Assembly (NCBI RefSeq): GCF_026210795.1
Contig: NC_089432.1
Location: 4,774,001-4,838,000 of the forward strand
Origin: Rhizophagus irregularis
Taxonomy: Eukaryota
Length of the DNA: 64,000 bases
Direction: 5' to 3'
Within the stretch, counting starts at the first letter, position 1. Every line of letters starts with the position of its first letter. The notes under the pieces were generated by a model that had not been told where the DNA came from, did not search any database, and was given only the letters and a program-made list of their open reading frames with translations. Below, piece by piece: positions 13,447 to 61,799 of the stretch. Both the position numbers and the translations under genes were made by a program.

Positions 13447-15881
13447 TTACTTTTTTTGAAGTATTTCTAATTTATTTTGTGCATCCGGGTTTCCTTGACT
13501 GGCAGATTTTTCATACCAACGAATTGCTTCGTTCATATCTTTTGTAATTCCTCTTCCATGTTCATATATATCTGCAAGATTATATTGTGCCAACATATTT
13601 CCTGAATTTGCTGATTTTCGATATAATTCAATTGCTTTTCGCTTATCAACTTTAGTTCCAATACCATTATAATAACAATATCCTAACATTGCTATTCCAC
13701 CTAAATATTCTCCTTCAGCTGATCGCTTATACAATTCAAAAGCTTTATTATAGTCTTTTTCAACACCATATCCATCTTTATAACATCTACCTAAATTATG
13801 CATTGCTACTATATTTCCATTATTTGAAGCTTTTTCATACCAATATAAAGACTTTCTTAAATCTTGTTTAATACCTAGTATTCCATTTTCATAAAAATAT
13901 CCAATTAATACTTGACCCATAGCTGATTCTTTATTAGCCACTTTTTCATAAAATATAAAAGCTTTTTTTATATCTTTTTTAGTTCCATATCCATATTGAT
14001 AACATTCACTAACAAAAAATTGTGCTAATAAGTGATCTTTTTCTGATGCATTAATAAATAAGTTAAATGCTTTCTTATTATCTTTATTTTTTTCAATTCC
14101 AAAGTAATTAAAATATCCAAGTAAAAAAATGGAATTTGAAGTATTTTGATTATTTAATAACCAATTATAAAATTTTTTTGATTTAGTATTGGAATTATTA
14201 AAATATTCAATAACTTTCTCTTTTACTAATTTTGCTTCAATTCCTTTATTTAATGATTTAAAAATTAAATCATTTGTTTCATCAACAGTTACGTTAAAAT
14301 TTCTTTCGATTGAAATTTTCTCTGGTTTATTTGACTCTACTATAGTATCAATTTCTTTTATATTATTTAAATCAAAATTTTGAATAAATTGAGATAATTC
14401 TCCTTGTGAATTTTGTGATTCTGACTTATTGACACTTGAAATGGAACGTGATTTAAAAAATTTTGAATTTTGTGATTCTGACTTATTGACACTTGAAATG
14501 GAACGTGATTTAAAATCTTTTGAGTTTTGTGATTCTAACTTATTAACTCTTGAAATGGAACGTGATTTAAAATCTTTTGAGTTTGGTGATTCTGACTTAT
14601 TGACTCTTGAAATGGAACGTGATTTTGAGTTTTTGCCCGATAATCGAGGATTTTCTGTTTTCGTAATTATTGCTTTTAACAAATCAACTACTTCATTTAT
14701 GGTTGGACGATTATCTGGTTCACCATCCCAACATTCTAAAAAATAAATATAATTTAATATTAGCTAAAATAATATTTTAAATCATAATTAAATTTAAAAT
14801 TTTACTTACTGGTATAAATACTTTCATATTTTACAAGTGTGCCAGGGACAACAGTTTCTCTTTGACCTCGAAAAATGTTCAAAGCCAGGCAAATATCATA
14901 ACTTTTATCTTCAACATAAAAAGGAGGTTTTCCACTGGATATTTCCCATAATAATACGCCAACACTGTAAACATCACTTTTTTCATTTAATGAAGACATT
15001 TGTGATGGGTTATTGCCAAAGATTTTCGGATCAATATAAGGAACACTTCCAAATAATTTAGATTGAATATTGGATGATGCTCCAATTCTTTTTGACAATC
15101 CAAAATCTGCTAATTTGATTGTGTTGTTACGGACTAATATATTACCGGAGTGCTATTTAAAAAAATATATATATTAAATTAAGTAATGCAAAGTATAATA
15201 ATTTATTGACCATTAAATAATGTTAAAATATTTTACCAAATCACGATGCACTATTTCTTCACCATGTAAGCATGATACGGCACAAGATAACTGGTACGCC
15301 ATATTATATTTGTCATCCCAAGTGAGGTTACTAAAGTTTTTTTTCAAATAACTTCGAAGACTACCACCATCGGCGTATTCCATCACTAATAAATAATTAT
15401 GATTATTTTCTAAATAAATAAAATAAAAAAATCATTAAAATGAATTTTTACAATTAAAAGAATAATATATTTATTAAAGTAACTATATAATACCTGACTC
15501 AAGTTTTGATATTCCAAGGCAACGAATAATATTATCATGAAAGTCAACTTCACGTTGATTTTTTAACTAAATAAAATTGAAATTTTTCGAAATAAATATT
15601 TTGAGTTTAAAATCATGGACGAAAAAAAAAAAAGGTATTATACGCTAAATTACCTCACGAACGATTTCTTCCATAGTGACGTTATCAAGAACAAAAAAAG
15701 ATTTTATCGCCAATGGTTTTTCTAAATCTTTCCAATTAGCACGATATACTTTTCCAAAACCTCCGGCACCAATTTGTTCAATATTCTTAAATTCTTTGTA
15801 TTCGTAAAATTTTATAAGTTTATTGTCGACAGCTTCCTCAATCCAAGTAGTCGATTCATTAATATTTTTTGTACCAGACAT
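13447..15881 (-). CDS. TKL-type protein kinase fused to C-terminal Sel1-like repeats (5 exons)
   Basis: Exons 15881-15654, 15566-15494, 15409-15237, 15152-14810 and 14735-13447 splice in frame with GT-AG introns. Kinase motifs are GAGGFGKV, AIK, HRDLHSGN, DFG and SDVYSVG. Sel1 repeats are of the type AQYNLADIYEHGRGITKDMNEAIRWYEKSASQG. Confidence 0.93.
14408..14635 (-). repeat. Coding 57-bp tandem repeat x4 (19-aa unit KSRSISRVNKSESPNSKDF)
   Basis: gaaatggaacgtgattt recurs every 57 nt in the kinase-Sel1 linker. Confidence 0.95.
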
Positions 15882-15981
15882 ATTTAATAATAAAATTCGA
15901 CAGAAAAGTTTTTAAAAACAATAAAATTGAACGGTCAAAGTTGTAAAATTTATTGAGTATGTTAAAAAAGAAAACTGAAAG

Positions 15982-29001: not shown

Positions 29002-30154
29002 CTGCAATATTACCAATAAAATTATTGAAAACTAAACTAAGCTAAAATCAACACTTAATAAAATCCCTTTTTAAAATCCCCTCATTCACCCATTCTATTT
29101 ATATTGTTCGTAATTTTGGTATAAATTATACCATGTATAAGTTAAACTTTGTATAAATTACACTGGGTGTAAATTAAACTAAGTATAAGTTATAAAAAGT
29201 ATAAGTTACACTGTTACACCACTGATCATTGGAATCTTATGCCACTTTCTTGAATCTTCGATGTGGCACAAATCCGCGTAACATCAGTATAATATAAATG
29301 GACAAAATCAATTATTTATAATACACCTCTCCAGAGTTCTTTATTCTTTTAACTCTAATATTCTAATATTATTAAGTATAGTTACTAAACCATTTAAATT
29401 AAGATCTTTGAGTTTCTTTGGAATAAAAACTAGAAAAATGATCATTTATTGGAGTTTTTTCCGGAATTTTTTTTATAGGGAAAAGGTTTACATATTGATG
29501 AATTATCAATTATTATTACAAAATATAGTGAATATTTAGAAAATTTTGAGTGTGCATTTATGAAACAATTATTTTAAAATATGATTCACATAAATTTTAT
29601 TCAAATATTAAACAGAATCTTAGTTACCTTTCAATCATTATAGTGAATTATAATAGTTGTATTTAGTGTAAGTTCAACTATATTACAAAATCTTAGGTTG
29701 AATGTTTATATTACAAAATTTATATTGAATAATGTAGTTTTATTATATTACAAAATTTAGGACAAAGTCCTTAAAAGTAGCAATCAGAGAAAACAATGAA
29801 TATAATTTGATAAAATATAACTCTTTTATGATAGCCATATTTTCAAAGAATTCTAAATGGAAGAAAACTCCTGTTCTGTCTTGTCTTGTCTTAGACAATA
29901 TAATACTTCCGGAAAAAAAATTGATAATCAAATTGCTAATACCGAAAATAGGATCAACAAATTTTCATACCAAATCTGCTCTGGTACCAAATTTATATTT
30001 GGTTTTTTTCATTTAAACATTCTAATAATGTCAAAATGATGTCAAAAACTGAAGTAGCAGTAGCAATGGAGGGCTAATATTAGTGAATAATCTAATGAGC
30101 ATGTTCAATACAAAAATAGATTTTGGGAAATAAGACTATGGAAATTGAAACCTA

Positions 30155-30660
30155 TTGAAAGATGATAATGATGCCAATAGCAAAGTCAAATTAAAGAATT
30201 ATGGAATTCCTTTGCAGCTCATGTTTAAAAAGCAAAAATTTTCTTATACTGATTATACTGATGAACTTGAGGCATATCTCAATGAACCATCAGCAAATTT
30301 TGACATGGATATTTTAGCATTTTGGAAGGTAAATAACAAACAAATAGCATTATTTATTATATTATTAGGAGTTTTATATTAATTATTGAATATTTTTTTA
30401 TAGGTTCATGAAAATAAATTCACAAACTTGTCTCAAATGGCCAGAGATTTTTTGGCAATTCCTGGTATATTTTAATTTCAATTGTTTAATAATAATAATT
30501 TACAATAATTATCACTAATTTTATTATTTTAAATAGGTACGACGTACGAGTGTTCCAGTTTTCCGATGATACTGATCTCATTACACAAAGAAGATTCTGG
30601 AAACGATCAGAAAAGCCATGTGTTTATAAGCATGGATAAACTTTAAAAAAAAATGTAATT
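30155..30660 (+). pseudogene. hAT transposase remnant (C-terminal dimerization domain)
   Basis: DELEAYLNEPSANFDMDILAFWK|intron|VHENKFTNLSQMARDFLAIP|intron|GT...DTDLITQRR...ETIRKAMCL*AW matches the hAT dimerization-domain pattern. The last exon is frameshifted. Confidence 0.85.
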
Positions 30661-33600: not shown

Positions 33601-33950
33601 ATAAAGTTAAATTTAAAATCCTAAAAATGTTTTTCTAACCAAGAATATTAATTTGTGCAGCGGTCGATTTATTTGTGGCTGATGTAACGCATGAATATTA
33701 TTACTATAACAGATAATAGTTTTATACCAATCTTTAAATAATTTCTAAAAAAGGATATACCCGATATGACCTGAACAATTTTGAAACATAAAGGGAGAAT
33801 ATCAAAAACAAAATAATACAATGCATGGGGGAGGAAATAATAATGAAAATTAAATTACATAATAAGAAAACAATGTAAAGTATGTAAATTCTAATTTTCT
33901 ATGATGATAATAGATATTTTAAAAGCCTAAAATTTGTTTGTTTGATTTAT

Positions 33951-33958
33951 TATAAATA
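33951..33958 (+). promoter_or_regulatory. TATA box (TATAAATA) upstream of the CaaX peptide ORF
   Basis: About 140 nt upstream of the ATG at 34098, followed by an A-rich, G-poor leader with no intervening ATG. Confidence 0.55.
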
Positions 33959-34097
33959 CGCTTGGCTTCGCCTTGTAAAAATCCCATCAAAGAAAAAAGT
34001 TCAAAGAACAAAATAAAAATCAACTAATCAAATTAATCAAAGAAATCAAATAAATATTAAATTCTCAAAATTACTTTTCAAATAAACTCAATCAAAA

Positions 34098-34199
34098 ATG
34101 AATCCAACAACTATTACCTCTAAACCAATTGTTATTGTTGCTTCCGAAATAACTGAAAAACCTGATGGTAATCCTACAAACTCATGTTCTATAATGTAA
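34098..34199 (+). CDS. 33-aa CaaX-terminated peptide; putative farnesylated lipopeptide (a-factor/basidiomycete-type) pheromone precursor
   Basis: MNPTTITSKPIVIVASEITEKPDGNPTNSCSIM*. It ends in CSIM-stop, has an EK dipeptide 10 residues before the Cys, an aaaaATG context and an upstream TATA box. Confidence 0.72.
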   Translation: MNPTTITSKPIVIVASEITEKPDGNPTNSCSIM

Positions 34200-34664
34200 A
34201 TGGAAAATTCTTTCAACGACTTAACGATTTCGGTTATTACATGGCAAACCTATGAAGACCAATTTTAACCCTAATGACGTAGCTACTATTTATTACAAAA
34301 TGGCCTGGCGCTATTATTTTTATTAAATTTCTTTATATTAACATGTATCATAAAAAAAATATCTTTGTAATTTAAATTTTATTTGTAATTTTCAATATAT
34401 TTATTATATTTGTGTATATTTTTACTTACTTATTCATTAAAAATAAAATTTTTTTGATTTTACATAAATTATAAATTATCTAATTATCATATTATATTAA
34501 ATATCCTTCTGTTGTACTTCATATTTCGAAGCTCAATCTTTCATTAAAAAAAAAATGATGCAATATTGTTTGTTACGTAAAATAGCTGTAGTCAGCCATG
34601 TGATCAACTCCTTAAAAATGTGACCTGTAAATCCAAACTATTTTAATCACCATTGATTTGAGAA

Positions 34665-35089
34665 TAGGGATTGGAATCGATTCTGCCAAAATCGAATTAA
34701 TCAAAAATCCGATCAGAATCGATTTAACTCGATTGTCAAATAAAAAATCGAAATTATAGTGCCGGCCAGAATTACGAAATTATATATAACGTGACATCGG
34801 ATCTTTGAAATTTTGAATTGTGTCACATTGAAGTATTAATTCTGGCCGGAATTATAAAATTACCGCCGATCGCTGATTATTCGTGCAATTTTAAATGCGA
34901 AATCATAAAATTTAATAATAAAATGATTTATATGTTAAATTTATGATCATTGGAAATTTCCCTGTCACAAATTTAGTGATTTATCGAAATCGAAAATCAA
35001 AATTTTAGAATCGAAATTTGAGAAACTATTAATCGCGATTAGTCGATTCTAAAATCGATTCGAATTATGGAAATCGATTCCAATCCCTA
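34665..35089. mobile_element. hAT-type MITE
   Basis: TIR TAGGGATTGGAATCGATT at both ends, a near-perfect 8-bp TSD (TTTGAGAA / GTTGAGAA) and many subterminal AATCGA motifs. Confidence 0.88.
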
Positions 35090-35396
35090 GTTGAGAATAT
35101 TGCTAATCATTTCAAAATTCTCCATTTGATTCGTACTTTATTAATAAATAATTTACAAATAATTAATAATATTAAACTACATAACATATTTAAATAATAA
35201 TTTTAATTTAACTGTTAGTATATATATTTTTTATTATTATTAATAATAAAAAGTAGAAAGTATTAATTTTAATTTAATAATTAATAATAATATTTTAAAA
35301 GCAATTTTACCATAGCACGTCAACCTGACTTATCACTTAAAAAAATTTTTTATTTTTAAAATAAAAATAATTTATTGACAATAAAATAAACACAAC

Positions 35397-37304: not shown

Positions 37305-39523
37305 CTTACTATCCGGAAGTTCCAATTCATCTTGTTCTTCCGAATGAAGATTTGGATTATTATGTATTTCATCATCATCTACAAATAAAATAATTATTTA
37401 GAAAGTATTAATTAATTATTATTATAATTATTATAATCAGTTTAAATAATTATATTACATACCGTCAATATCATCATGATATTTTTTTATTTGTTGTTGC
37501 ATTGTTTCTTGAATATCTAAAAATTAAAATAACGTTATATTCAATATTAAACAATTAAATTTGATAATATTAATACTTCTACTTGCCATTTTTCGAATTC
37601 CTTTTGAATATTTTGGATAATTTTTCACTACCAACTAAAAAATTTAAAATATAAACATTAATTTGTTTGATTATCTATTAAAGGAAATAATATTAAATAT
37701 GTTTTATAAATTACCTTTAAAAATGCTAATTATTTTTGAATTATTCTTCTGATTATTCAACTTATCAAAATCATCAACTAATAAATAAAAATAAATCAAA
37801 TAAAGTATCTTATTATATTAACATAAATCTAATAAACTTACTGTTATTGGGAATATGAAAGTTGTATGATTTATTACTGTGAAATGCTAATAAAAGAAAA
37901 TAATTTATTATTTAATTATTTAAAATAAAAAAATATATATAAAATTGTATGTTAATTTATACCTTCTTGTTCTTCTGCATTATTATTTAATTAAAAAGGT
38001 AAGATTTTAATTATTGATATCAACCATATATTAAAAATCAAATAACAAATTTCAATAATACCTTCTGTTGCATTTCTTGGTTCAGGGAGATTTTTAAATT
38101 GATGAACTTTACTCGTAAATAATCTGCTACTATTTGTATAGTTTTCTAAATCACCTATTTCCAAACTATTATCTTCATCCAGTTGGGTTAATAATTCATT
38201 TGATTTATTTTGGTAGTCTAAATTAAGTTCTCTTATTCTTTTCCTAAGTATTTCAATGTCTGGTCTATTCGATGGATTAGCATCCCAACATTGTTTCATT
38301 AAATTTTTATATTCTAAAGGAGTTCCTGATATAATTTTTGGTCTTATACCATTAATTATATTTATTGCAAGATCATAATCATGTTCGTATTTAATAAATG
38401 GTGGTTGTCCAGATGAAATTTCCCACATAAGTATGCCAATACTATAAATGTCAGATTTAAAAGTATTTACTTTTCCTGCAATAACTTCCGGTGCAATGTA
38501 GGGAAGATTTCCATATACACTCTTTAATGGTTTATCTGCAGGTCCACAAAATCCAAGATCACTAATACAAAATTTACTATCTCTAAATAATATATTTCCG
38601 GAATGCAAATCCCTATGAATCACATTCTCTCCATGAACTCGTGAAAGTTCTATTATTATGTCAGCAGCAATTTGATTTCTTTCTTTCCATGTAAGTTGAT
38701 TATGATTTTGTTGTAAATATTTTCTTAAATCTGTATCAAATTTATTCATTACAAGCATATAATCTCCATTTAATGGATCTTTTGTTAAACCATAACATTG
38801 GACAATCGCATCTGACCATTTATTACATATATTTAAATGCGAACTAGCCTATAAAATAAAGAAAATATTATAAAAAATTTTAAATGAAAATTACTATACC
38901 ATTTTTAGATTACAAACCTCTTCAAACCAACGTTTATTTGCACTTTCAACATTTTCTAATCTTTTAAGTACCACATTATATTTCCTAATTCTTTTTAATT
39001 GTTGTTCATTAGAATCCCATCCATAATAACCTCCATCAACCCATTCTGCTGTATAAATTTCAGAATATCCACCTTTTGTTAAATATTTAATATTTTTTAA
39101 ATTATTATATGGAATCCATTCAATTACGACATTCGGGTCAAGTGTTTTCATCTGACATTCTTGTATTAAATTGTCAATAACATCATTTCCAGATGTCCAA
39201 TTTGAAAAATTATTTTTTAAATAATTTCGAACACAATATTCACAGTATAATGTAGCTAAACATTTTTGGTTACAATTTTCACAAACTCTTCTTGTTCCTT
39301 CATTATAAATAAGTTTGCATTTATCATAAATTGCAGTCAAAATTCTTATTGCTTCAGATTTTTCATCTTTTGTAAGTGATTCATCAGCAAGAATTGTTTG
39401 TTTCCGAAATTCAAATTGTTTGTGCATATTATTGTGAATATTATAATCCGTTAGTGCAGATGCTTTGTTAAGTGTAGTATTAATTAAATCTTTTCTAATA
39501 ACAGACATAATGAAAAATTTCAT
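37305..39523 (-). CDS. TKL-type protein kinase with an N-terminal Cys-rich (CxxC...CxxC) region and several small 3' exons
   Basis: Exons 39523-38918, 38848-38062, 37974-37963, 37886-37842, 37777-37715, 37634-37587, 37516-37463 and about 37378-37305 splice in frame. Motifs are KGGYSEIY, VVLK, HRDLHSGN, DLG and APE, with a tail NPNLHSEEQDELELPD. The exact stop is uncertain. Confidence 0.9.
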
Positions 39524-42500: not shown

Positions 42501-43149
42501 CAATAAAAAATAATAGTAATGTTCATTTTAGTGAGACGAAGCCAATTCATAATCGGTAATTGAAATGTTTGTTTTTCGTTTCTTAAAAATAAAAATTTTA
42601 ACCCAGCGTCTTTATTAATAAATCAATCTCAGCTATTGTAAAAGAAAAAGAAATGTTTATTCAATTATTGCGAGAAATCTCATACACTAATTCTGAGAAA
42701 GCATCCTACGTACCTCTACTCGAATGAATTAGTACCTTACTCTCCTCTAATTGACTATTCAGCTGAAAGTATCATAAAATTAGATTATTTAATACTAAAT
42801 AAGTTCTCCTCAGGCTCTCTCTTCTTAGTAAGTTGGACATCATGCTACGATTGCTATAGACAAATTGATATTTTTTATTAACATTTTTATTACAAATACT
42901 ATTATTATTAAAAAAAATTATATTTAAATTAATTATTATTAATTGGTTTGCAAATTATTTTTGGACGAAACTTATAACATGTTAAATCGTATTAAACATA
43001 CAGTACCATGTATTTATAATTTAATAATCGTTTGATTCGTATCATAAAATATTAATACAGATTGTAAGAAATCTAGCAATACATGCATACATATAAAAAT
43101 TGGTTGTATGAAATTAAAAAAAGCTGTGTACACGTACTATAATAAATGG

Positions 43150-43738
43150 AAGAAAACTTGAAATAAATTAAAAAACTGTTGTTTGTATTTGTAATAAAAA
43201 CCCGAGGAAAAAAATACGAAAAAACAAGCGATAAAATGAAAGAAATTTTGATATAACTCGAACAATTTGTTTGCGTTTGTAATAAAATCCGAAAAAGTAG
43301 AATAATAATAAACGAAAAAGTTTGTATTTGTAATAAAATCCGAGAAAAAAAATATGAAAAAAAAACAAGCGATAAAATGAAAAAAAAATTGAAATAACTC
43401 GAACAGTTTGTTTGCGTTTGTAATAAAACCCGAAAAAAAAGAATAATAATAAATGAAAAAGTTTGTATTAGTAATAAAATCCGAGAAAAAAAATATGAAA
43501 AAAAAAACGGTGATAAAATGAAAGAAAAATTGAAATAACTCGAACAATTTGTTTACGTTTGTAATAAAAACCGGAAAAAAAAGAATAATAATAAACGAAA
43601 AAAGTGTTTGTATTTGTAATAAAATCCGTGAAAAAAAAATATGAAAAAAAACGGGGGATAAAATGAAAGAAAAATTGAAATAACTCGAATAATTTGTATG
43701 TAATAAAAACCGAAAAAAAAGAATAATAAACGAAGTAA
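43150..43738. repeat. ~141-bp A-rich tandem repeat x4
   Basis: taactcgaa recurs at 43254, 43395, 43536 and 43681. Confidence 0.9.
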
Positions 43739-43747
43739 TATAAGTTT

Positions 43748-45270
43748 TTATATTTGATACTTATCGGAATTTATGTCACAATCATCGCAACTTGGTAAGT
43801 TTGGTAAGTTCAATAAGTCAGAATCATCATTTCTTAATATTACTGTTGTTTCACTTTCATTTTTAAAATTATTTGCTAAGCTTGTGCTGACTTTAGGATC
43901 AGTAGAATCAATAATTTTATCAAGTTCCGAATTTACTTTGTGAATATTTGGTCTTTCATCTGGTTCTTGTCTCCAACATTCTATTCAAATAAATTTCAAA
44001 ATTAGATCATATAGTTAAAAATTAATAGTATTAGCTTAAACTTACCTTCATAAAGCGCAACGAATTTATCGTTTGTGTTTGGAATAGGTTTTTCTCTTTC
44101 ACCATCAAGAATTTTTAATATAATAGATGCATTATCATTCCTTGTTTCATAATTGAAAGGTGATGAACAACTAGTCAATTCCCAGAATATAACTCCTAAA
44201 CTATAAATATCTGATTTTTCGTTTAAATCGTAACCCTTAACATTATTAAGAATTTTAGGATCAACGTAAGGTATTATGCCACGTGGTTTAGTAGGTAGAT
44301 AGGAAACTTTTTCTTGTTGACGCAAACGTGAACATCCAAAATCTGATAATTTTATTGTATTTTGATGTATTAAAATATTTTTGGAATGCTAAATAGAATG
44401 AATAACTTAATGTGTTAATTGGTGTTAATTATATAATATCATAACGATATTAAAATAAATTAATCACACTTACAAGATCTCCATGTATGATTTTGTTATC
44501 ATGTAACCATAAAATTGCACCTGTAATTTCTTTGGCAAACTTAAATTGGATTTCCTATTTAATTAAAGATTTAGTGTTGTCTTTTAAATGATTTTCCAAT
44601 GTTCCCCCGTCCGCGTATTCAAGAACGAATGAATAATTTATTCCATCCGATTCATCTTAAATTATAAAAAAATTATGTAAACAATACTTAAAATATATAT
44701 CAAACGATCAAATGATTATCATACCTCATACCTTTTAATTTCGTAACTCCATAAAATCGAATTATATTTGGATGAGATGCTATCATCATTAAATTAATCT
44801 AAATGAATTCATAATATTAAAAATGACAATGTCAATAAAACAATAGGATATAGTATACTATATACTGTATAAACAGAGTTAATTATTAACATACTTCGTT
44901 AATAATTTCTTCCATGGAGTTTAAATTTTCATTAAATTCTTTAATCGCAAATTTTGTTGTGTTCTTCCAATATGCGACATGAACCGTAGAAAATCCTCCA
45001 GAGCCAATCTTAACAAAATTTTTAAATTCTTGAGAGTCATAGTAACAAATTATCTTATCATCCAATAATACATTAATGCTATTTGACTCACGTATCTTTA
45101 TAAAATAAAATATAATTAATTAATAAATAAATACTAATTAATAACTAGTAATTGAATGGTTTTAATTTTAAATCAAATGTATCCTAACTAACTGAAGGAT
45201 AAAAAAAAGTTAGGCTCAATATAATTCAATCAAAAAATAATAATTTACCTGTATATTCGTATTGTGCTTT
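43748..45270 (-). pseudogene. TKL kinase pseudogene
   Basis: Spliced exons give GSGGFSTV, FAIK, VLEYADGG, HGDL|HSKN, DFG and SDIYSLG. An in-frame TAG at 44557-44555 replaces the conserved Trp. No clear start ATG, and a probable frameshift in the last exon. Confidence 0.85.
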
Positions 45271-52938: not shown

Positions 52939-55231
52939 TTATTGATTATTTTGAAGTACTTCTAACTTATTTTGTGCATATTGATAACCTTGTTTAGCAG
53001 ATTTTTCATACCAATAAATCGCTTTAACTATATCTTTTGTAATCCCTTTACCTTCTTCATATATCCTAGCAAGATTATATTGTGCTGTCACATATCCTAA
53101 ATTTGCTGATTTTTGATATAATTTAAACGCCTTTTGTGTATCAATTTTAGTTCCAATACCTATTTCATAACAATATCCTAATAAATTTATTCCACGTGGG
53201 TATCCTCCTTCAGCCGATTTTTTGAAAAATTCAAAAGCTTTATTATAATCTTTTTCAACATCATTTCCATTTTTATAACAATTACCAAGATAATACATAG
53301 CCATTATATTTCCATTATTAGCAGCTTTTTCATACCAATAAAAAGCTTTTTTTGAATCTTTTTTAACAGCTATTCCGTTTATATAAAAATAACCAATATC
53401 TAATTGACCATGTGTGAAATTATTATTGGCTGATTTTTCATAATATTCAAAAGCTAATTTATCATTTTTTGTAGTTCCTCTTCCATAATAATAACAACTA
53501 CCAGCAAAGTATTGTGCAAATTCATGATTTTTTTCTGATGCATCAAGAAGTAAATTAAATGCTTTCTCCATATTTTTACTTGTTCCAATTCCATAAAAAT
53601 TAAAATATCCAAGTAAAAAAATAGAATTTGAATTATTTTGATTACTTATTAACCAATTGTAAATTTCTTGTGAATTAATATTTTGATCATTAAAATATTC
53701 CATAGCTTTCTGCTTTAGAAACTGCCATTTAATTCTTTTATTTGCTAATTTAATTAAATAATCATTTATTTCATCAACTATTATATCAAAACCTTTTTCA
53801 AATGAAGCTTTCTCTCGTTCATTTGATACTGCTATAGGATCAGTTTCTATTATATTTATTTTGTTGAAATAATGAATTAGTTTTGATAATTCTCCTTGCG
53901 ATTCTTGATTGGTTGGGAATTGTTGATCTATTATTCCGTTCAACAAATCAATTACTTGATATATGGTTGGTCGATTATCTTGTTTACAATCCCAACATTC
54001 TAAAAAAATGCAGGAAACATGATTTAAGATTAATTAAATAATATTAAAATTAAATTTAAATTTAAAATATTACTTACTAGTATAAATTGTTACATATTCT
54101 TCAGGTGTGTCAGGAACAATAGTTTCTCTAAGACCATTTGAAATTTCCAAAATTAAACTAACATTATGTCGATCGTCTTCAGCATAAAAAGGTGGTCGCC
54201 CACTTGATATTTCCCATAATAATATTCCAAAACTGTAAACATCACTTTTTTCATTTAATGAATACATTTGCGTTGTTTGATTATTATCATTTCTTTGTCC
54301 GTTAAAGGTTTTTGGATCAACATAAGGAACCATCTCAAATAATTTGGATTGACAATTAGATGATGTTCTAATTCTTTTTGATAATCCAAAATCCGCCAAT
54401 TTGATCTTGTTTTGATGAACTAATACATTGCCAGAATGCTATTAAAAATGAATAAAATTAAATATATTAAAAATTAAGTAAATACAAATATAATATTATC
54501 AACAACAATGATTAAATGATAATAAATAAATTACCAGATCATGATGGACAATTCCCTCATTATGCAAGCATGATACAGCGCTAGCTAACTGGAATGCCAT
54601 AATGTATTTATCATTCCAAGTAAGCTTATCAAAGTTATTCTTCAAATAGTCTCGAAGATTACCACCGTCTGCACATTCCATTACCAGCATATAATTATAA
54701 TTATCATGATTTTCTAAAAGAAAATTTATATATATATATACATTGTTAGAAATGCATTTTTATGAGTAAAATTGAATATATTACATTTAAAATTTTTATA
54801 ATACCTGATTCGAATTTTGTTATTCCATGACAATACATAATATTATCACGAAGATCATTTAAACGTTGAATTTTTAACTAAATAAATAAATTTAAAATTT
54901 TGAAATAAATATACTAATAGACTAATAAAGACCGAAAAGACCGAAAAGACCGAAAAAAAAAAATTATTGTACACTAAATTACCTCACGAATAATTTCTTT
55001 CAGAGTGATATTGTTAAAATTAAAAAAAGATTTTATTGCAAATTGTTTTTCTAAATTTTTATCATAATTTGCACGGTATACTTTTCCAATACTTCCAACA
55101 CTAATTTGTTGAAAGTTACTAAATTTTTTGTATTCGTAAAATTTTAAATGTTTTTTAAAGATAGCTTCTTCAATCCAGTTAATAGATTCACTCGTATTTT
55201 CGGTATCTTGCATTTCGATATTGTCAGACAT
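52939..55231 (-). CDS. TKL kinase-Sel1 repeat protein, tandem copy A
   Basis: Same 5-exon structure as the 13447-15881 gene. Motifs SVGSIGKV, FAIK, HHDL|HSGN and DFG, then Sel1 repeats. Confidence 0.92.
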
Positions 55232-55892
55232 AATGAATAATAATTTATTTGTAAGAAAAAGTATTAAAAATTTTAGAATTGAAATGTCTAGTTGAAAATT
55301 TTATTGTGTAAACTGCTTACGCAATATATTCTCCGCCCATAGTTACACAACGCCCATTAGCATCATTAAACGCAGTCACACAGTACTACAGTTAATAACA
55401 CATTCCGAAAATAATAATAATATAGTAATTTCCATATACTATATATATTGTCTCATTTTGCCGATCAATTAGCACAAATTAATATTTTAAAAAATAGTAC
55501 TATCAATTATTTTAAGTCAATCCCAACGACGAGACTGTAACCCAAGGTCACGGTACTTCATATTTGTTTCCCGCAGCTACTAACAATATAGAAAAATATA
55601 TATACTGTATATTGCAAATCGGCAAATCATTATTTTCTTTCACTTCGGCGAAATGATTCCAAATTATCACAAGTCTTGTAGTTCTAGAACGACATTAGTA
55701 AAAATATATACATTCAGTTAATAATAAAAATATACTCGTTAAAGAATAATTATCATTAAAATTTTAATAAGTCTTTTATTTGTAAATTAAAAAAAGTAAA
55801 TAATAATAAATACATGTATATCAAATTAAAAAAAAAATATATAATGCAGTATAGCAAATTTAATTGATTTAAATATCAAGAATCGAAAGAAT

Positions 55893-58222
55893 TTAAGAAT
55901 TTAATAATTTTTCTAATTTATATTTCGCATCTTGATACCCTTGTTTGGAAGATTTACCATACCAATAAATCGCTTTATCTATATCTTTTATAATTCCATC
56001 CCCATGTTTATACATATTACCGAGATTATACTGTGCTACCATACTTCCTAAATTTGCTGAATTTTGATATAATTCAAATGATTTTTGTTTGTCAATTTTA
56101 GTTCCAATACCTTTATGATAACAATATCCTAACATTGTTATTCCATTTGAATATGAATATTCTCCTTCAGTTGATTTCTTGAACATTTTAAAAGCTTTAT
56201 TATAATCTTTTTCAACACCATCTCCCCTTAAATAACATCCACCTAAATTATGCATAGCTATTATATTTCCATTATTTGAAGCTTTTTTGTACCAATAAAG
56301 AGCTTTTTTTAAATCTTTTTCAATGCCTATTCCATATTTATAACAATAACCAGTATCTAATTGTCCATTTGTAAAATTTTTATTAGCAGATTTTTTATAA
56401 TATTCAAAAGCTAATTGATCGTTTTTTATGGTTCCATTTCCATGTCTATAACAATTTCCAACAAAATATCTTGCGAATATATGATTTTTTGATGCATCAA
56501 CAAATAAATTAAATGCTTTTTTATAATCACGTTTTACACCAATTCCATAAAAATTAAAATAGCCAAATAAAAAAATAGAATTTGAATTGTTTTGATTATT
56601 CAATAACCAATTATACATTTCTTGCAAATCAATATTGTAATTAACAAAATAATCAATAATTTGTCGCTTTAACATCTGCCATTCAATTCCTCTATTTACA
56701 AGTTTAATAATATAATCATTTACTTCATCTATTATGTCAAAACCTTTTTCAAATAAAACTTTTTCTCGTTCATTTGATAATATTGTAGGATCAATTTCTT
56801 GTATATTTATTTTATTAAAGTTTTGAATAAATTGAGATATTTCTCTTTGTGATTCTAGATTCTCATTAAGTTCTTGCTTGCTTGAGAATTGAGTATTTTG
56901 TGTTACAACTGTATTTGAAATGATTTCTTTCAACCAATTAACTACTTGATATATAGTTGGTCGATTATCTGGCTCATTATCCCAACATTCTAAATAAAAA
57001 TAAATAAATTTATAATTAACTAAATAATATTCAAATTGTCATTAAATTTAAAATTTTACTTACTAGTATAAATTTTTATGTAATCTTCAGGTGTGTCAGG
57101 AACAATAGTTTCTCTAAGACCATTTGAAATTTCCAAAATTAAACTAACATTATGTCGATCGTCTTCAGCATAAAAAGGAGGTCGCCCACTTGATATTTCC
57201 CATAATAATACTCCAACACTGTAAGCGTCACTTTTTTCATTTAATAAATACATTTGCGTTGTTTGATTATTATCATTTCTTTGTCCGTTTACTCCGTTAA
57301 AGGTTTTTGGATCAACATAAGGAACCATCTCAAATAATTTGGATTGACAATTAGATGATGTTCTAATTCTTTTTGATAATCCAAAATCTGCCAACTTGAT
57401 CTTGTTTTGATGAACTAATATATTGCCAGAATGCTATTAAAAAGGAATAAAATTGAATATATTAAAAATTAAGTAAATACAAATATAATATTATCAACAA
57501 CAATGATTAAATAATAATAAATAAATTACCAGATCATGATGGACAATTCCCTCATTATGCAAGCATGATACGGCGCTAGCTAACTGGAATGCCATAAGGC
57601 ATTTATCATTCCAAGTAAGCTTATCAAAGTTATTCTTCAAATAGTCTCGAAGATTACCACCGTCTGCACATTCCATTACCAACATATAATTATAATTATC
57701 ATAATTTTCTGAAAGAAAAAGTTACATATATTTATATATTATTAGAAATGCATTTTTATGAGTAAAATTCAATATATTGCATTTAAAATTTTTATAATAC
57801 CTGATTCGAATTTTGTTATTCCATAACAATACATAATATTATCACGAAGATCATTTACACGTTGGATTTTTAACTAAATAAATAAATTCAAAATTTTGAA
57901 ATAAATATACTAATAGACTAATAAAGACCGAAAAGACCGAATAAAAAAAAAAAATTATTGTACACTAAATTACCTCACGAATAATTTCTTTCAGAGTGAT
58001 ATTGTTAAAATTAAAAAAAGATTTTATTGCAAATTGTTTTTCTAAATTTTTATCATAATTTGCACGGTATACTTTTCCAATACTTCCAACACTAATTTGT
58101 TGAAAGTTACTAAATTTTTTGTATTCGTAAAATTTTAAATGTTTTTTAAAGATAGCTTCTTCAATCCAGTTAATAGATTCACTCATATTTTCGGTATCTT
58201 GCTTTTCGATATTGTCAGACAT
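55893..58222 (-). CDS. TKL kinase-Sel1 repeat protein, tandem copy B (chimeric)
   Basis: 5 exons. The kinase exons are nearly identical to copy A and the Sel1 exon is nearly identical to copy C. Confidence 0.92.
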
Positions 58223-58952
58223 AATGAATAATAATTTATTTAATTTATTTGCAAAAAAAAAGTATTAAAAATTTTAGAATTGAGTTGAAAATTTTATTGT
58301 GTAAACGACTTACGCAATATATTCTCCGGTCATAGTTACACAACGCCCATTAGCATCACCGAAAATCATTAAACGCAGTCACACAGTACTACAGTCAATA
58401 ACACATTCTGACAATAATAACAATAATAAAGTAATTTCCATTTACTATATATATTTTCTCATTTTTTAACCACTACGTATGTATATTATGACTTTTTGCC
58501 AAACTAAAGGGGATTAGAACTATGCCGATCAATTAGCTGGTGCACAAATTAAAATTTTAAAAAATAGTACTATCAATTAATCCCAACAACGAGACTGTAA
58601 CCCAAGGTCACGGTACTTCATATTTATTTCCCGCAGCTACTAACAAAATAGGAAAATATATATACTGTATATCGCAAATCGGCAAATCATTATTTTCTTT
58701 CACTTCGGCGAAATGATTCCAAATTATCACAAGTCTTGTAGTTCTAGAACGACATTAGTAAAAATATATACATTCAGTTAATAATAAAAATATACTCGTT
58801 AAAGAATAATTATCATTAAAATTTTAATAAGTCTTTTATTTGTAAATTAAAAAAAATAAATAATAATAAATACATGTATATCAAATTTAAAAAAAAAAAT
58901 ATAATGCAGTATAGCAAATTTAATTGATTTAAATATCAAGAATCGAAAGAAT

Positions 58953-61247
58953 TTAAGAATTTAATAATTTTTCTAATTTGTATTTCGCATCTTGATACCC
59001 TTGTTTGGAAGATTTACCATACCAATAAATCGCTTTATCTATATCTTTTATAATTCCATCCCCATGTTTATACATATTACCGAGATTATACTGTGCTACC
59101 ATACTTCCTAAATTTGCTGAATTTTGATATAATTCAAATGATTTTTGTTTGTCAATTTTAGTTCCAATACCTTTATAATAACAATATCCTAACATCATTA
59201 TTCCACCTGAATATCCTCCCTCAGCTGATTGTTTAAACAATTCAAAAGATTTATTGTAATCTTTTTCAACACCTTCTCCATTTAAATAACTTCTACCTAA
59301 ATTACACATGGCCATTGTATTTCCATTATTTGCAGCTTTTTCATACCAATAAAGAGCTTTTTTTAAATCTTTTTCAATACCTATTCCATATTTATAACAA
59401 TAACCAGTATCTAATTGTCCATTTGTAAAATTTTTATTAGCAGATTTTTTATAATATTCAAAAGCTAATTGATTATTTTTTATGGTTCCATTTCCATGTC
59501 TATAACAATTTCCAACAAAATATCTTGCGAATATATGATTTTTTGATGCATCAACAAATAAATTAAATGCTTTCTTATAATCACGTTTTACTCCAATTCC
59601 ATAAAAATTAAAATAGCCAAATAAAAAAATAGAATTTGAATTGTTTTGATTATTCAATAACCAATTATACATTTCTTGCAAATCAATATTGTAATTAACA
59701 AAATAATCAATAATTTGTCGCTTTAACATCTGCCATTCAATTCCTCTATTTACAAGTTTAATAATATAATCATTTACTTCATCTATTATGTCAAAACCTT
59801 TTACAAATAAAACTTTTTCCCGTTCATTTGATAATATTATAGGATCAATTTCTTGTATATTTATTTTATCAAAGTTTTGAATAAATTGAGATATTTCTCT
59901 TTGTGATTCTAGATTCTCATTAAGTTCTTTCTTGCTTGAGAATTGAGTATTTTGTGTTACAACCGCATTTGAAATGATTTCTTTCAACCAATTAACTACT
60001 TGATATATAGTTGGTCGATTATCTGGCTCATTATCCCAACATTCTAAATAAAAATAAATAAATTTATGATTAACTAAATAATATTCAAATTGTCATTAAA
60101 TTTAAGATTTTTACTTACTAGTATAAATTTTTATGTAATCTTCAGGTGTGTCAGGAATAATAGTTTCTCTAAGACCATTTGAAATTTCCAAAATTAAATT
60201 AACATTATATCGATCGTAAAAAGGACGTCGCCCACTTGATATTTCCCATAATAATACTCCAATACTGTAAACATCACTTTTTTCATTTAGTGTATTTAGT
60301 GTATATATTTGTGTTGTTTGGTTATTATCATTTCTTTGTCCGTTAAAGGTTTTTGGATCAACATAAGGAATCATCCCAAATAATTTGGATTGAAAATTAG
60401 ATGATGCTCTAATTCTTTTTGATAATCCAAAATCTGCCAATTTGATTTTGTTTTGATGAACTAATACATTGCCAGAATGCTATTAAAAATGAATAAAAAT
60501 GGATATATTAAAATTAAGTAAATATAAATATAACATTATCAACAATGATTAATGATTATAAATAAATTACCAGATCACAATGAACAATCCCCATATTATA
60601 TAAGCATGATACAGCGCAAGCTAGCTGGTATGCCATAAGGTATTTATCACTCCAAGCAAGTTTACTGAAGTTATTCTTCAAATAGTCTCGAAGACTACCA
60701 CCGTCTGCACATTCCATTACCAACATATAATTATAATTATTATCATGATTTTCTAAAAGAAATATATATATATATATATATTATTGTTAGAAATGTATTT
60801 TTATTAGTAAAATTCAATATATTATGTTTAAAATTTTTATAATACCTGATTCGAATTTTGTTATTCCATGACAATACATAATTTTATCGCGAACATCAAC
60901 TTCACGTTGAATTTTTAACTAAATAAATAAATTCAAAATTTTAAAATAAATATGCTAATAGACCGAATAAAAAAAACTTATTATATATATTAAATTACCT
61001 CACGAATAATTTCTTTCAGAGTGATATTGTTAAAATTATAAAATGATTTTATTGCAAATTGTTTTTCTGAATTTTTCCAATTTGCACGGTATGCTTTTCC
61101 AGAACTCCCAGAACCAATTTGTTGAAAGTTACTAAATTGTTCGTATTCGTAAAATTTTAAATGCTCTTTAACGATGGCTTCTTCAATCAAGTTAGTAATA
61201 GATTCATTCATATTTTCGGTATTTTGCATTCCGATATTGTCAGACAT
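58953..61247 (-). CDS. TKL kinase-Sel1 repeat protein, tandem copy C
   Basis: 5 exons. Motifs GSGSSGKA, FAIK, HCDL|HSGN and DFG, then Sel1 repeats. Confidence 0.92.
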
Positions 61248-61799
61248 AATGAATAATGTTATTTGACAGAAAAGGTATTAAAATAATAGGATTGAACGGT
61301 CAACATTATTGTGCAAAATATTTATGCGGAATAATTATGTTTCGATTATAGTTGCACAGCGCCACTAGTATCACCAAACAAAAAAGGATTATTAGACGCA
61401 GTAGACGCAGTACTGCAGTAATGACGTATCAGCGATCGTATCACGAAAATAATAATAATCAAATTTTAACGCTGAAAATATTACCAATCATCATTTTAAG
61501 TTCGAACTTATACCATATAAATTGTTCTTATTTTTTAGATCACATTGGGCAACGTATGTATATTATGAATTTTTGCAAACCTTAAACCTTTAACAAGTTA
61601 ATAAACTAGTAGGAGATTAGGGGACTATGTCGATCATCTGGCTGGGTGGAGAGACTATTCATTATTATATACTATCGTCGTTCATGATCTTTTCTTTCAT
61701 ATATTCTGTATTACTGATATACTGTACTAATGAAAAATAAACATTAATTATTTCATGTCGATTAATTTTTTCAGAATAAAATGATTTAAAATCTTCACA

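Follow-up and report, generated by a model that had tools for sequence, protein, structure and literature searches.

A conserved, unannotated micro-gene family of arbuscular mycorrhizal fungi encodes candidate lipopeptide pheromone precursors

Introduction

Is a reading frame of 33 codons that ends in a CaaX box, in a 64,000-nucleotide stretch of the Rhizophagus irregularis genome (hereafter the window), a gene, and could its product be a pheromone? Arbuscular mycorrhizal (AM) fungi are partners of most land plants, and no sexual cycle has been observed in them. In the sections available to us, a previous report describes one STE3, STE6 and a MAP kinase cascade in Rhizophagus, with no pheromone gene found (PMC3834313), and a co-inoculation study describes no pheromone gene as upregulated (PMC7490403). 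STE3-like receptors are mainly found in Dikarya, according to the accessible part of a survey of fungal GPCRs (bioRxiv 2024.11.25.625238), and Ste3 is listed among fungal novelties in that of another study (PMC10406608). The original prediction, made from the letters of the window, saw in the frame the precursor of a farnesylated peptide. Here, we describe its homologs and flanking elements and discuss what they suggest about its function.

Results

A 33-codon reading frame between conserved flanking elements

The reading frame (P0001) and the elements around it are arranged in the window as follows:

33933..33944, plus strand: TTTGT-rich element directly 5' of the TATA box, from the alignment with other loci
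33950..33959, plus strand: TATA box TTATAAATAC, recurring in 7/8 ATG-bearing copies
33960..34097, plus strand: A-rich 5' leader (51% A) without ATG, inside which homologous RNA-library contigs start
34098..34199, plus strand: 33-codon ORF P0001, a candidate lipopeptide pheromone precursor, judged by translation, family and a dN/dS of 0.28
34302..34313, plus strand: conserved 3'-UTR motif GGCCTGGCGCTA, found in 7/9 loci

The ORF begins in the context TCAAAA-ATG, in a window with a GC content of about 25%, and translates to MNPTTITSKPIVIVASEITEKPDGNPTNSCSIM followed by a stop, i.e. 33 residues with a C-terminal CSIM. Its peptide and the N-terminal 33 residues of an R. irregularis DAOM 197198 gene model are alike except at one position (97% identity). 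The features that had been claimed for it, namely an isolated 33-codon CaaX ORF with a TATA box, an ATG-free A-rich leader and an AAAA-ATG start, are all present. In a scan of 138 stop-to-stop frames of at least 58 residues, the only Pfam matches across the whole window were protein kinases and Sel1 repeats; the closest matching frame is a kinase on the minus strand, starting at 37994, and upstream of the ORF none was found back to 15911. There is no further copy of the micro-gene within the 64-kb window, and the repeats flanking it proved uninformative.

For comparison, we used eight metagenome loci with homologous copies (L001–L008). A TATA box lies 104–148 nt upstream of the ATG in seven of the eight ATG-bearing copies (the window and L001–L007; the contig of L003 begins merely 111 nt upstream of its ATG), against a background of TATAAATAC in 2 of 319 200-nt bins of the window. 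A stretch comparable to the TTTGT-rich element, which we take, by its resemblance, to be a possible HMG-box factor site, aligns in L001, L004, L005 and L007; a strict TTTGT pattern matched three of the nine loci, the window not among them. Downstream, the 3'-UTR motif is found with up to two mismatches in 7/9 loci, 55–110 nt past the last sense codon (L001:909, L004:738, L005:2888, L006:1192, L007:1236, L008:665 and window 34302–34313), and in 1 of 319 200-nt window bins, with the proviso that it was picked by eye from the same loci in which it was counted. The motif is GC-rich (GGCCTGGYRCTA), is retained in seven of nine copies in an AT-rich and otherwise diverged 3' flank, and is possibly an mRNA localization or stability element.

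Several other features of these loci were recorded. Four paralogous genes with kinase domains and Sel1 repeats, three of them in tandem, lie on the minus strand of the window (13447–15911 and 52939–61277), and kinases adjoin the micro-gene in L003 and L007 as well. A broken frame at 30149–30650 on the plus strand resembles, by eye, the C-terminal dimerization region of a hAT transposase; one frame was scanned and had no Pfam match. At 34660–35090, 460 nt downstream of the gene, an AATCGA/TCGATT-rich stretch, with an inverted pair similar to TAGGGATTGGAATCGATT at its borders (near 34666 and 35075), resembles by eye a small non-autonomous transposon. A low-complexity tandem repeat at 43073–43984 has open frames on the minus strand without Pfam matches, and adjoining frames in L005:201–1480 resemble, by eye, a multi-pass membrane channel, with no Pfam match at an E-value of 0.01.

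Conservation across AM fungi

The CaaX micro-ORF motif alone is within chance expectation. The window has 533 small ORFs, of which 11 have a Cxxx end (15.6 ± 4.3 in a Markov null) and one a strict CaaX (0.7 ± 0.9), and six of 100 null windows contained a strict-CaaX ORF with an AAAA-ATG start. We therefore take the micro-gene as real because it is conserved, and not because of its CaaX motif.

A phmmer search returned 13 matches, 11 of which are homologs; the remaining two (P0007 and P0009), long repeat proteins, were excluded before all counts. Three profile searches gave 51, 53 and 53 overlapping matches, to which cluster members were added. The resulting family comprises 81 sequences, i.e. 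the window copy, 32 named gene models and 48 unnamed sequences. Every named member comes from Glomeromycotina (R. irregularis, R. clarus, Acaulospora colombiana, Diversispora epigaea, D. eburnea, Gigaspora margarita, G. rosea, Dentiscutata erythropus and Cetraspora pellucida), and all are annotated as hypothetical or by id alone. Named matches beyond Glomerales and Diversisporales were absent from the three word-limited profile searches, in the third of which the best 7995 candidates were scored. Multiple copies are common, with three UniRef entries in DAOM 197198, all of them with the peptide EKPDGNPTNSC, and five models in D. eburnea. The micro-gene is thus a copy of a conserved, multi-copy, unannotated Glomeromycotina micro-gene family. 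This bears out the claim that it is a real gene of an AM fungus, and the conserved C-terminus and variable middle that had been proposed as a check are both found among the homologs.

Known families provided no counterpart. No Pfam family matched P0001, no Pfam pheromone family matched any of 16 family members scanned, and PDB sequences, the ESM Atlas and an exact look-up gave no usable match for the peptide, which is part of a peptide family outside every catalogued pheromone family. A literature search, which left subscription journals and bioRxiv supplements mostly uncovered, returned no description of an AM fungal pheromone precursor or of these gene ids, and two DAOM model ids are absent from the 12 supplements searched, of 13, of the co-inoculation study (PMC7490403).

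The CaaX end in DNA copies and gene models

The C-terminal end of the ORF is given by the following feature:

34185..34199, plus strand: CaaX box CSIM with TAA stop; pN of 0, TAA in 7/8 loci

A TAA directly follows CSIM in the window and in seven of the eight metagenome loci, and the stop codon was part of no search pattern. L001 and L004 read NECSIM, which falls outside the CSIM-bearing search pattern, yet they keep the CSIM-stop. Among the 48 unnamed homologs, 40 have a Cxxx end (37 CSIM and one each of CSIV, CLIM and CTIM), and the terminal CaaX is missing in eight. By contrast, only 5 of the 32 named models end in CSIM and 27 have no terminal CaaX: nine of these have CSII with a tail behind it, five carry a partial flag, and in the others the divergence sets in within or past a unit. 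Of the named models, 10 contain CSII, which is absent from all 48 unnamed homologs.

Models with CSII and a tail are the outcome to be expected if a predictor mistakes the GT within ATG-TAA for a splice donor, and gene predictors have likely used the GT at 34196–34197 as such a false splice site. The extended ends of the 27 named models probably result from false splicing, as judged from the proteins rather than from their DNA. Tails of Rhizophagus paralogue models are mutually unrelated; some Gigasporaceae tails have common words (P0074/P0077 and P0076/P0081), given which some of these models may contain real introns. In our view, the gene was overlooked because it is too short and because predictors likely spliced its stop away.

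Two of the metagenome copies are degenerate or altered. In L002:115–345, the stop is lost (CAA for TAA), which creates a read-through ORF. L008:507–597 is an apparent pseudogene, in which little separates the TATA box from about codon 9 and the ATG is gone; it retains the CSIM-stop and a match to the 3' motif.

Eight DNA copies (the window and L001–L007; L008, which has no ATG, was left out) yield a dN/dS of 0.28 overall, 0.38 for the leader, 0.33 for the PIVIV-like stretch and 0.18 from TE to CSIM, values that are pooled over non-independent pairs and for which the recruiting patterns contained some of the scored residues. In the CSIM codons, pN is 0 and pS 0.51, which is partly circular, and all alignment gaps among the DNA copies are whole codons. 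Purifying selection acts on the family and is strongest on the predicted mature region.

Contigs from RNA libraries

Six of 24 runs were recorded as RNA, and four of them, from four studies, were examined as contigs. Ten of the 12 contigs from these runs fall on 33999–34248, where they cover the leader, the ORF and the start of the 3' flank; those covering the leader start at 33999 and 34010. ATG-TAA is read through by six of them with no joint listed, and a seventh has the CSIM-stop with a synonymous change, in a loose end. All four runs include contigs that read through the CaaX-stop unspliced, and run X15 has at least three variants of the gene. Two X17 contigs on AT-rich 34376–34500 were discarded as likely chance matches, and missing RNA cover on the flanks was given no weight as evidence. 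The contigs come from plant, root and soil libraries, have 80–97% identity and carry no strand or level, and RNA libraries may contain DNA. As for the transcript mapping proposed with the original prediction, unspliced contigs extend across leader, ORF and stop, but they represent homologs and not the window copy.

Precursor architecture and the predicted mature peptide

Upstream of the CaaX box, the precursor falls into two parts:

34098..34154, plus strand: N-terminal pro-region, residues 1–19, the most variable part, predicted to be cut off
34155..34187, plus strand: predicted mature peptide EKPDGNPTNSC, residues 20–30, at an x[EDK]xP anchor with a putative cut site

The pro-region, with its dN/dS values of 0.38 and 0.33, consists of a Ser/Thr-rich leader and a hydrophobic KPIVIV stretch and ends at the T of a TE-x-P anchor. 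Of 96 complete units, 94 come after an x[EDK]xP anchor, which has TE in 87, whatever the preceding spacer; a mature peptide starting at EK, as first guessed, fits this anchor. The distance from E to C is 9–13 residues (10 in 52 of 90), and 46 distinct E-to-C peptides occur between the fixed anchor and the fixed CaaX. EKPDGNPTNSC, predicted to be S-farnesylated and methyl-esterified, is the expected product of the window copy and of all four DAOM 197198 records, EKPAQPTNSC is predicted from another R. irregularis record set, and a single G. margarita precursor contains two different predicted peptides.

Such two-unit precursors make up 34 of the 81 family sequences, among them 13 unnamed sequences and the majority of the named Diversisporales entries, all of them known from protein rather than DNA sequences; the window copy has a single unit. 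An internal C-x-I-[MI] is kept in all 34, as CSIM in 31 and as CSII, CLIM and CTIM in one each, and the CSII case (P0006) may be two adjoining genes fused by the predictor. The internal CSIM is often followed by Y, H or Q; together with the stop loss in L002, this suggests an origin for the tandem forms. In Gigasporaceae, two types of two-unit genes are found, one with two different predicted peptides and the other with two alike (gene pairs P0055/P0077, P0061/P0078, P0062/P0076 and P0072/P0081).

Units in which anchor and CaaX are fixed and the middle varies, and which recur within a precursor, point to a released peptide rather than to a folded or anchored protein. Likewise, the occurrence of two-unit precursors with an internal CaaX strengthens their interpretation as pheromone precursors.

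Discussion

A putative a-factor-like precursor

As far as sequences can tell, it is probable that the ORF encodes an a-factor-like lipopeptide precursor that acts through an STE3 signaling mechanism. By analogy to known pathways, farnesyltransferase would modify Cys30, Rce1 would take off SIM, and the cysteine would then be methylated. A protease cut at the TE-x-P anchor would free the 11-residue EKPDGNPTNSC, which STE6 would export and STE3 and the MAP kinase cascade would sense; cleavage behind the internal CSIM of two-unit precursors would yield a second lipopeptide. The motif itself has precedents: in the sections available to us, yeast a-factor with CSIM is described as supporting mating comparable to the native motif and as being cleaved by Rce1, not Ste24 (PMC9231725), and putative Leotiomycete a-factors include CSIM (PMC10569646). 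The accessible parts of PMC7735620 treat a-factor processing in general and contain no mention of CSIM.

Several known pheromone families resemble the new one, each in a different manner. Judging from the accessible text of Srikant et al. (bioRxiv 10.1101/2021.09.28.462209), farnesylated pheromones of Saccharomyces and other yeasts are likewise encoded by short, unannotated CaaX-stop ORFs in several copies with the C-terminus most conserved, and the sequence-level features given there for a-factors are found in our family except for the asparagine rule (bioRxiv 2021.09.28.462209). The Asn cleavage site of Saccharomycotina, located 5–20 residues before the cysteine, is not conserved: Asn25 fits it here, and many homologs have K, H, Q, D or G. 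In contrast to yeast a-factor, to which no sequence similarity was detected, the family has a TE-x-P anchor in place of the conserved Asn site, comprises two-unit precursors and is found in hosts outside Dikarya. Tandem units with CaaX-like spacers are known from rhodotorucine A (RHA; PMC3068285) and Microbotryum a1 (PMC4675872), whose multi-copy precursors, as described in the parts accessible to us (see also bioRxiv 2025.09.11.675505), resemble the 34 of 81 sequences here in that each unit is followed by a CaaX-like tetrapeptide. They differ in having three to five units instead of two, and RHA genes are reported to share a P/R locus with STE3; in our family, neither an STE3 close to the micro-gene nor mating-type alleles were seen.

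A CPAX-type end with a polar first position and a final Met, as well as a Ser/Thr-rich N-terminus, is a likeness to the hypocrealean h-type HPP1 and to Leotiomycete a-factor, as described in the available portions of PMC3068285 and PMC10569646; expression of the Leotiomycete a-factor-like genes is without mating-type dependence, according to the Discussion of the latter (PMC10569646). Sequence and lineage are unrelated to these, however, and neither a Gly-Tyr motif nor Kex2-type dibasic sites were seen in our family. Agaricomycete precursors have an acidic and a basic residue side by side, some 10 positions ahead of the cysteine. Such a pair upstream of the cysteine (taken from the accessible part of PMC3068285) is also found here, as EK in 66 of the 94 anchored units; others have EQ, ER, ED or EN, and, unlike Agaricomycete pheromone precursors, the family has no Pfam match and no receptor linkage.

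Alternative explanations

The gene models themselves suggest a different view, in which longer proteins have the ORF as their first exon and the CaaX-stop is not its true end: in 27 of the 32 named models, the sequence extends beyond the CaaX or diverges before it, ATG-TAA-AT contains the donor-like word GTAA, and some Gigasporaceae tails are alike. The unrelated tails of the Rhizophagus paralogues argue against it, as do the restriction of CSII to 10 named models (0/48 unnamed), the six RNA-library contigs that pass through ATG-TAA without a listed joint, and the fact that such splices would remove the conserved 3'-flank motif; we regard it as very unlikely. Less likely still is a proline-flanked cyclic-peptide precursor with a variable core between two prolines, similar to what we take to be the MSDIN family. 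It could account for the variable residues between KP and PTN in many Glomerales copies, but the core would have merely 2–6 residues, many units (GLT, DLT, DAV) lack the second proline, and the invariant terminal CaaX would be left unexplained. It is also improbable, if less so, that the farnesylated peptide is retained in the cell, where it would serve as a membrane-anchored micro-adaptor, e.g. a calcineurin tether. PIVIV[AT] presumably resembles the PxIxIT calcineurin-docking motif, a PxIxIT-like stretch with a dN/dS of 0.33 is present in 51 of the 81 sequences, and ordinary RNA libraries from roots and soil contain homologs. As this stretch is absent from the other 30, every named Diversisporales entry included, while TE-x-P...NxCSIM is kept, the reading as a PxIxIT-type anchor fails, and the internal C-x-I-[MI] of all 34 two-unit precursors would not be explained by any intracellular anchor.

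Closer to the proposed mechanism is a secreted, processed lipopeptide that addresses another receptor or organism, such as the host plant, endobacteria or competing fungi, or that acts as an autocrine density signal unrelated to STE3. We consider this unlikely, yet a more serious candidate than the foregoing. It would be consistent with the lack of STE3 linkage and of a mating-type pattern in our data, with the presence of homologs in plant, root and soil libraries, with near-identical predicted peptides in several Diversisporales species and with Leotiomycete a-factor-like genes, which are not expressed by mating type in the sections seen of PMC10569646. On the other hand, an orphan STE3 and STE6 are reported for the same fungi (PMC3834313), and short, repeat-bearing CaaX precursors of fungi are otherwise pheromones (PMC4675872, PMC3068285), as far as the available parts of these papers go.

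Receptor, mating type and likely use

For the preferred a-factor-like lipopeptide, the question is what it signals. Pfam matches to STE3, STE6 or homeodomains were absent from the 138 window frames of at least 58 residues and from 12 chosen frames of L001 and L003–L007, scans that short exons and short contigs limit. No mating-type-specific distribution was seen among the MAT-untyped family sequences, and in Gigasporaceae the two gene types are listed under identical species names with ids built alike. It seems that the peptide goes with the species and not with the mating type. The idea of a cryptic mating or hyphal-recognition signal has thus gained a CaaX-stop family and two-unit precursors, but no link to the receptor gene or to a mating type was found. 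Since such a link is lacking and homologs occur in ordinary root and soil libraries, vegetative recognition is as open as mating. Its most likely use is species-level attraction or recognition of hyphae before fusion, in mating or anastomosis, with mating-type choice made later at other loci; we favor this because one receptor gene is reported and because the peptide seems to track species. A comparable role in attraction or self-recognition is debated for the Leotiomycete a-factor-like genes (PMC10569646, in the part accessible to us).

Implications

We lean slightly towards the view that this family is the ligand of the orphan AM fungal STE3 and the first lipopeptide pheromone system outside Dikarya. 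If so, a-factor/STE3 signaling would predate the split between Mucoromycota and Dikarya, and AM fungi would have a signal for hyphal recognition, coded by species, with which cryptic sex or anastomosis begins. The family provides a concrete ligand candidate for the AM fungal STE3 in the form of an 11-residue lipopeptide that can be synthesized. Mating and hyphal recognition in AM fungi would thereby become directly testable, and controlled fusion or crossing of inoculant strains could follow.
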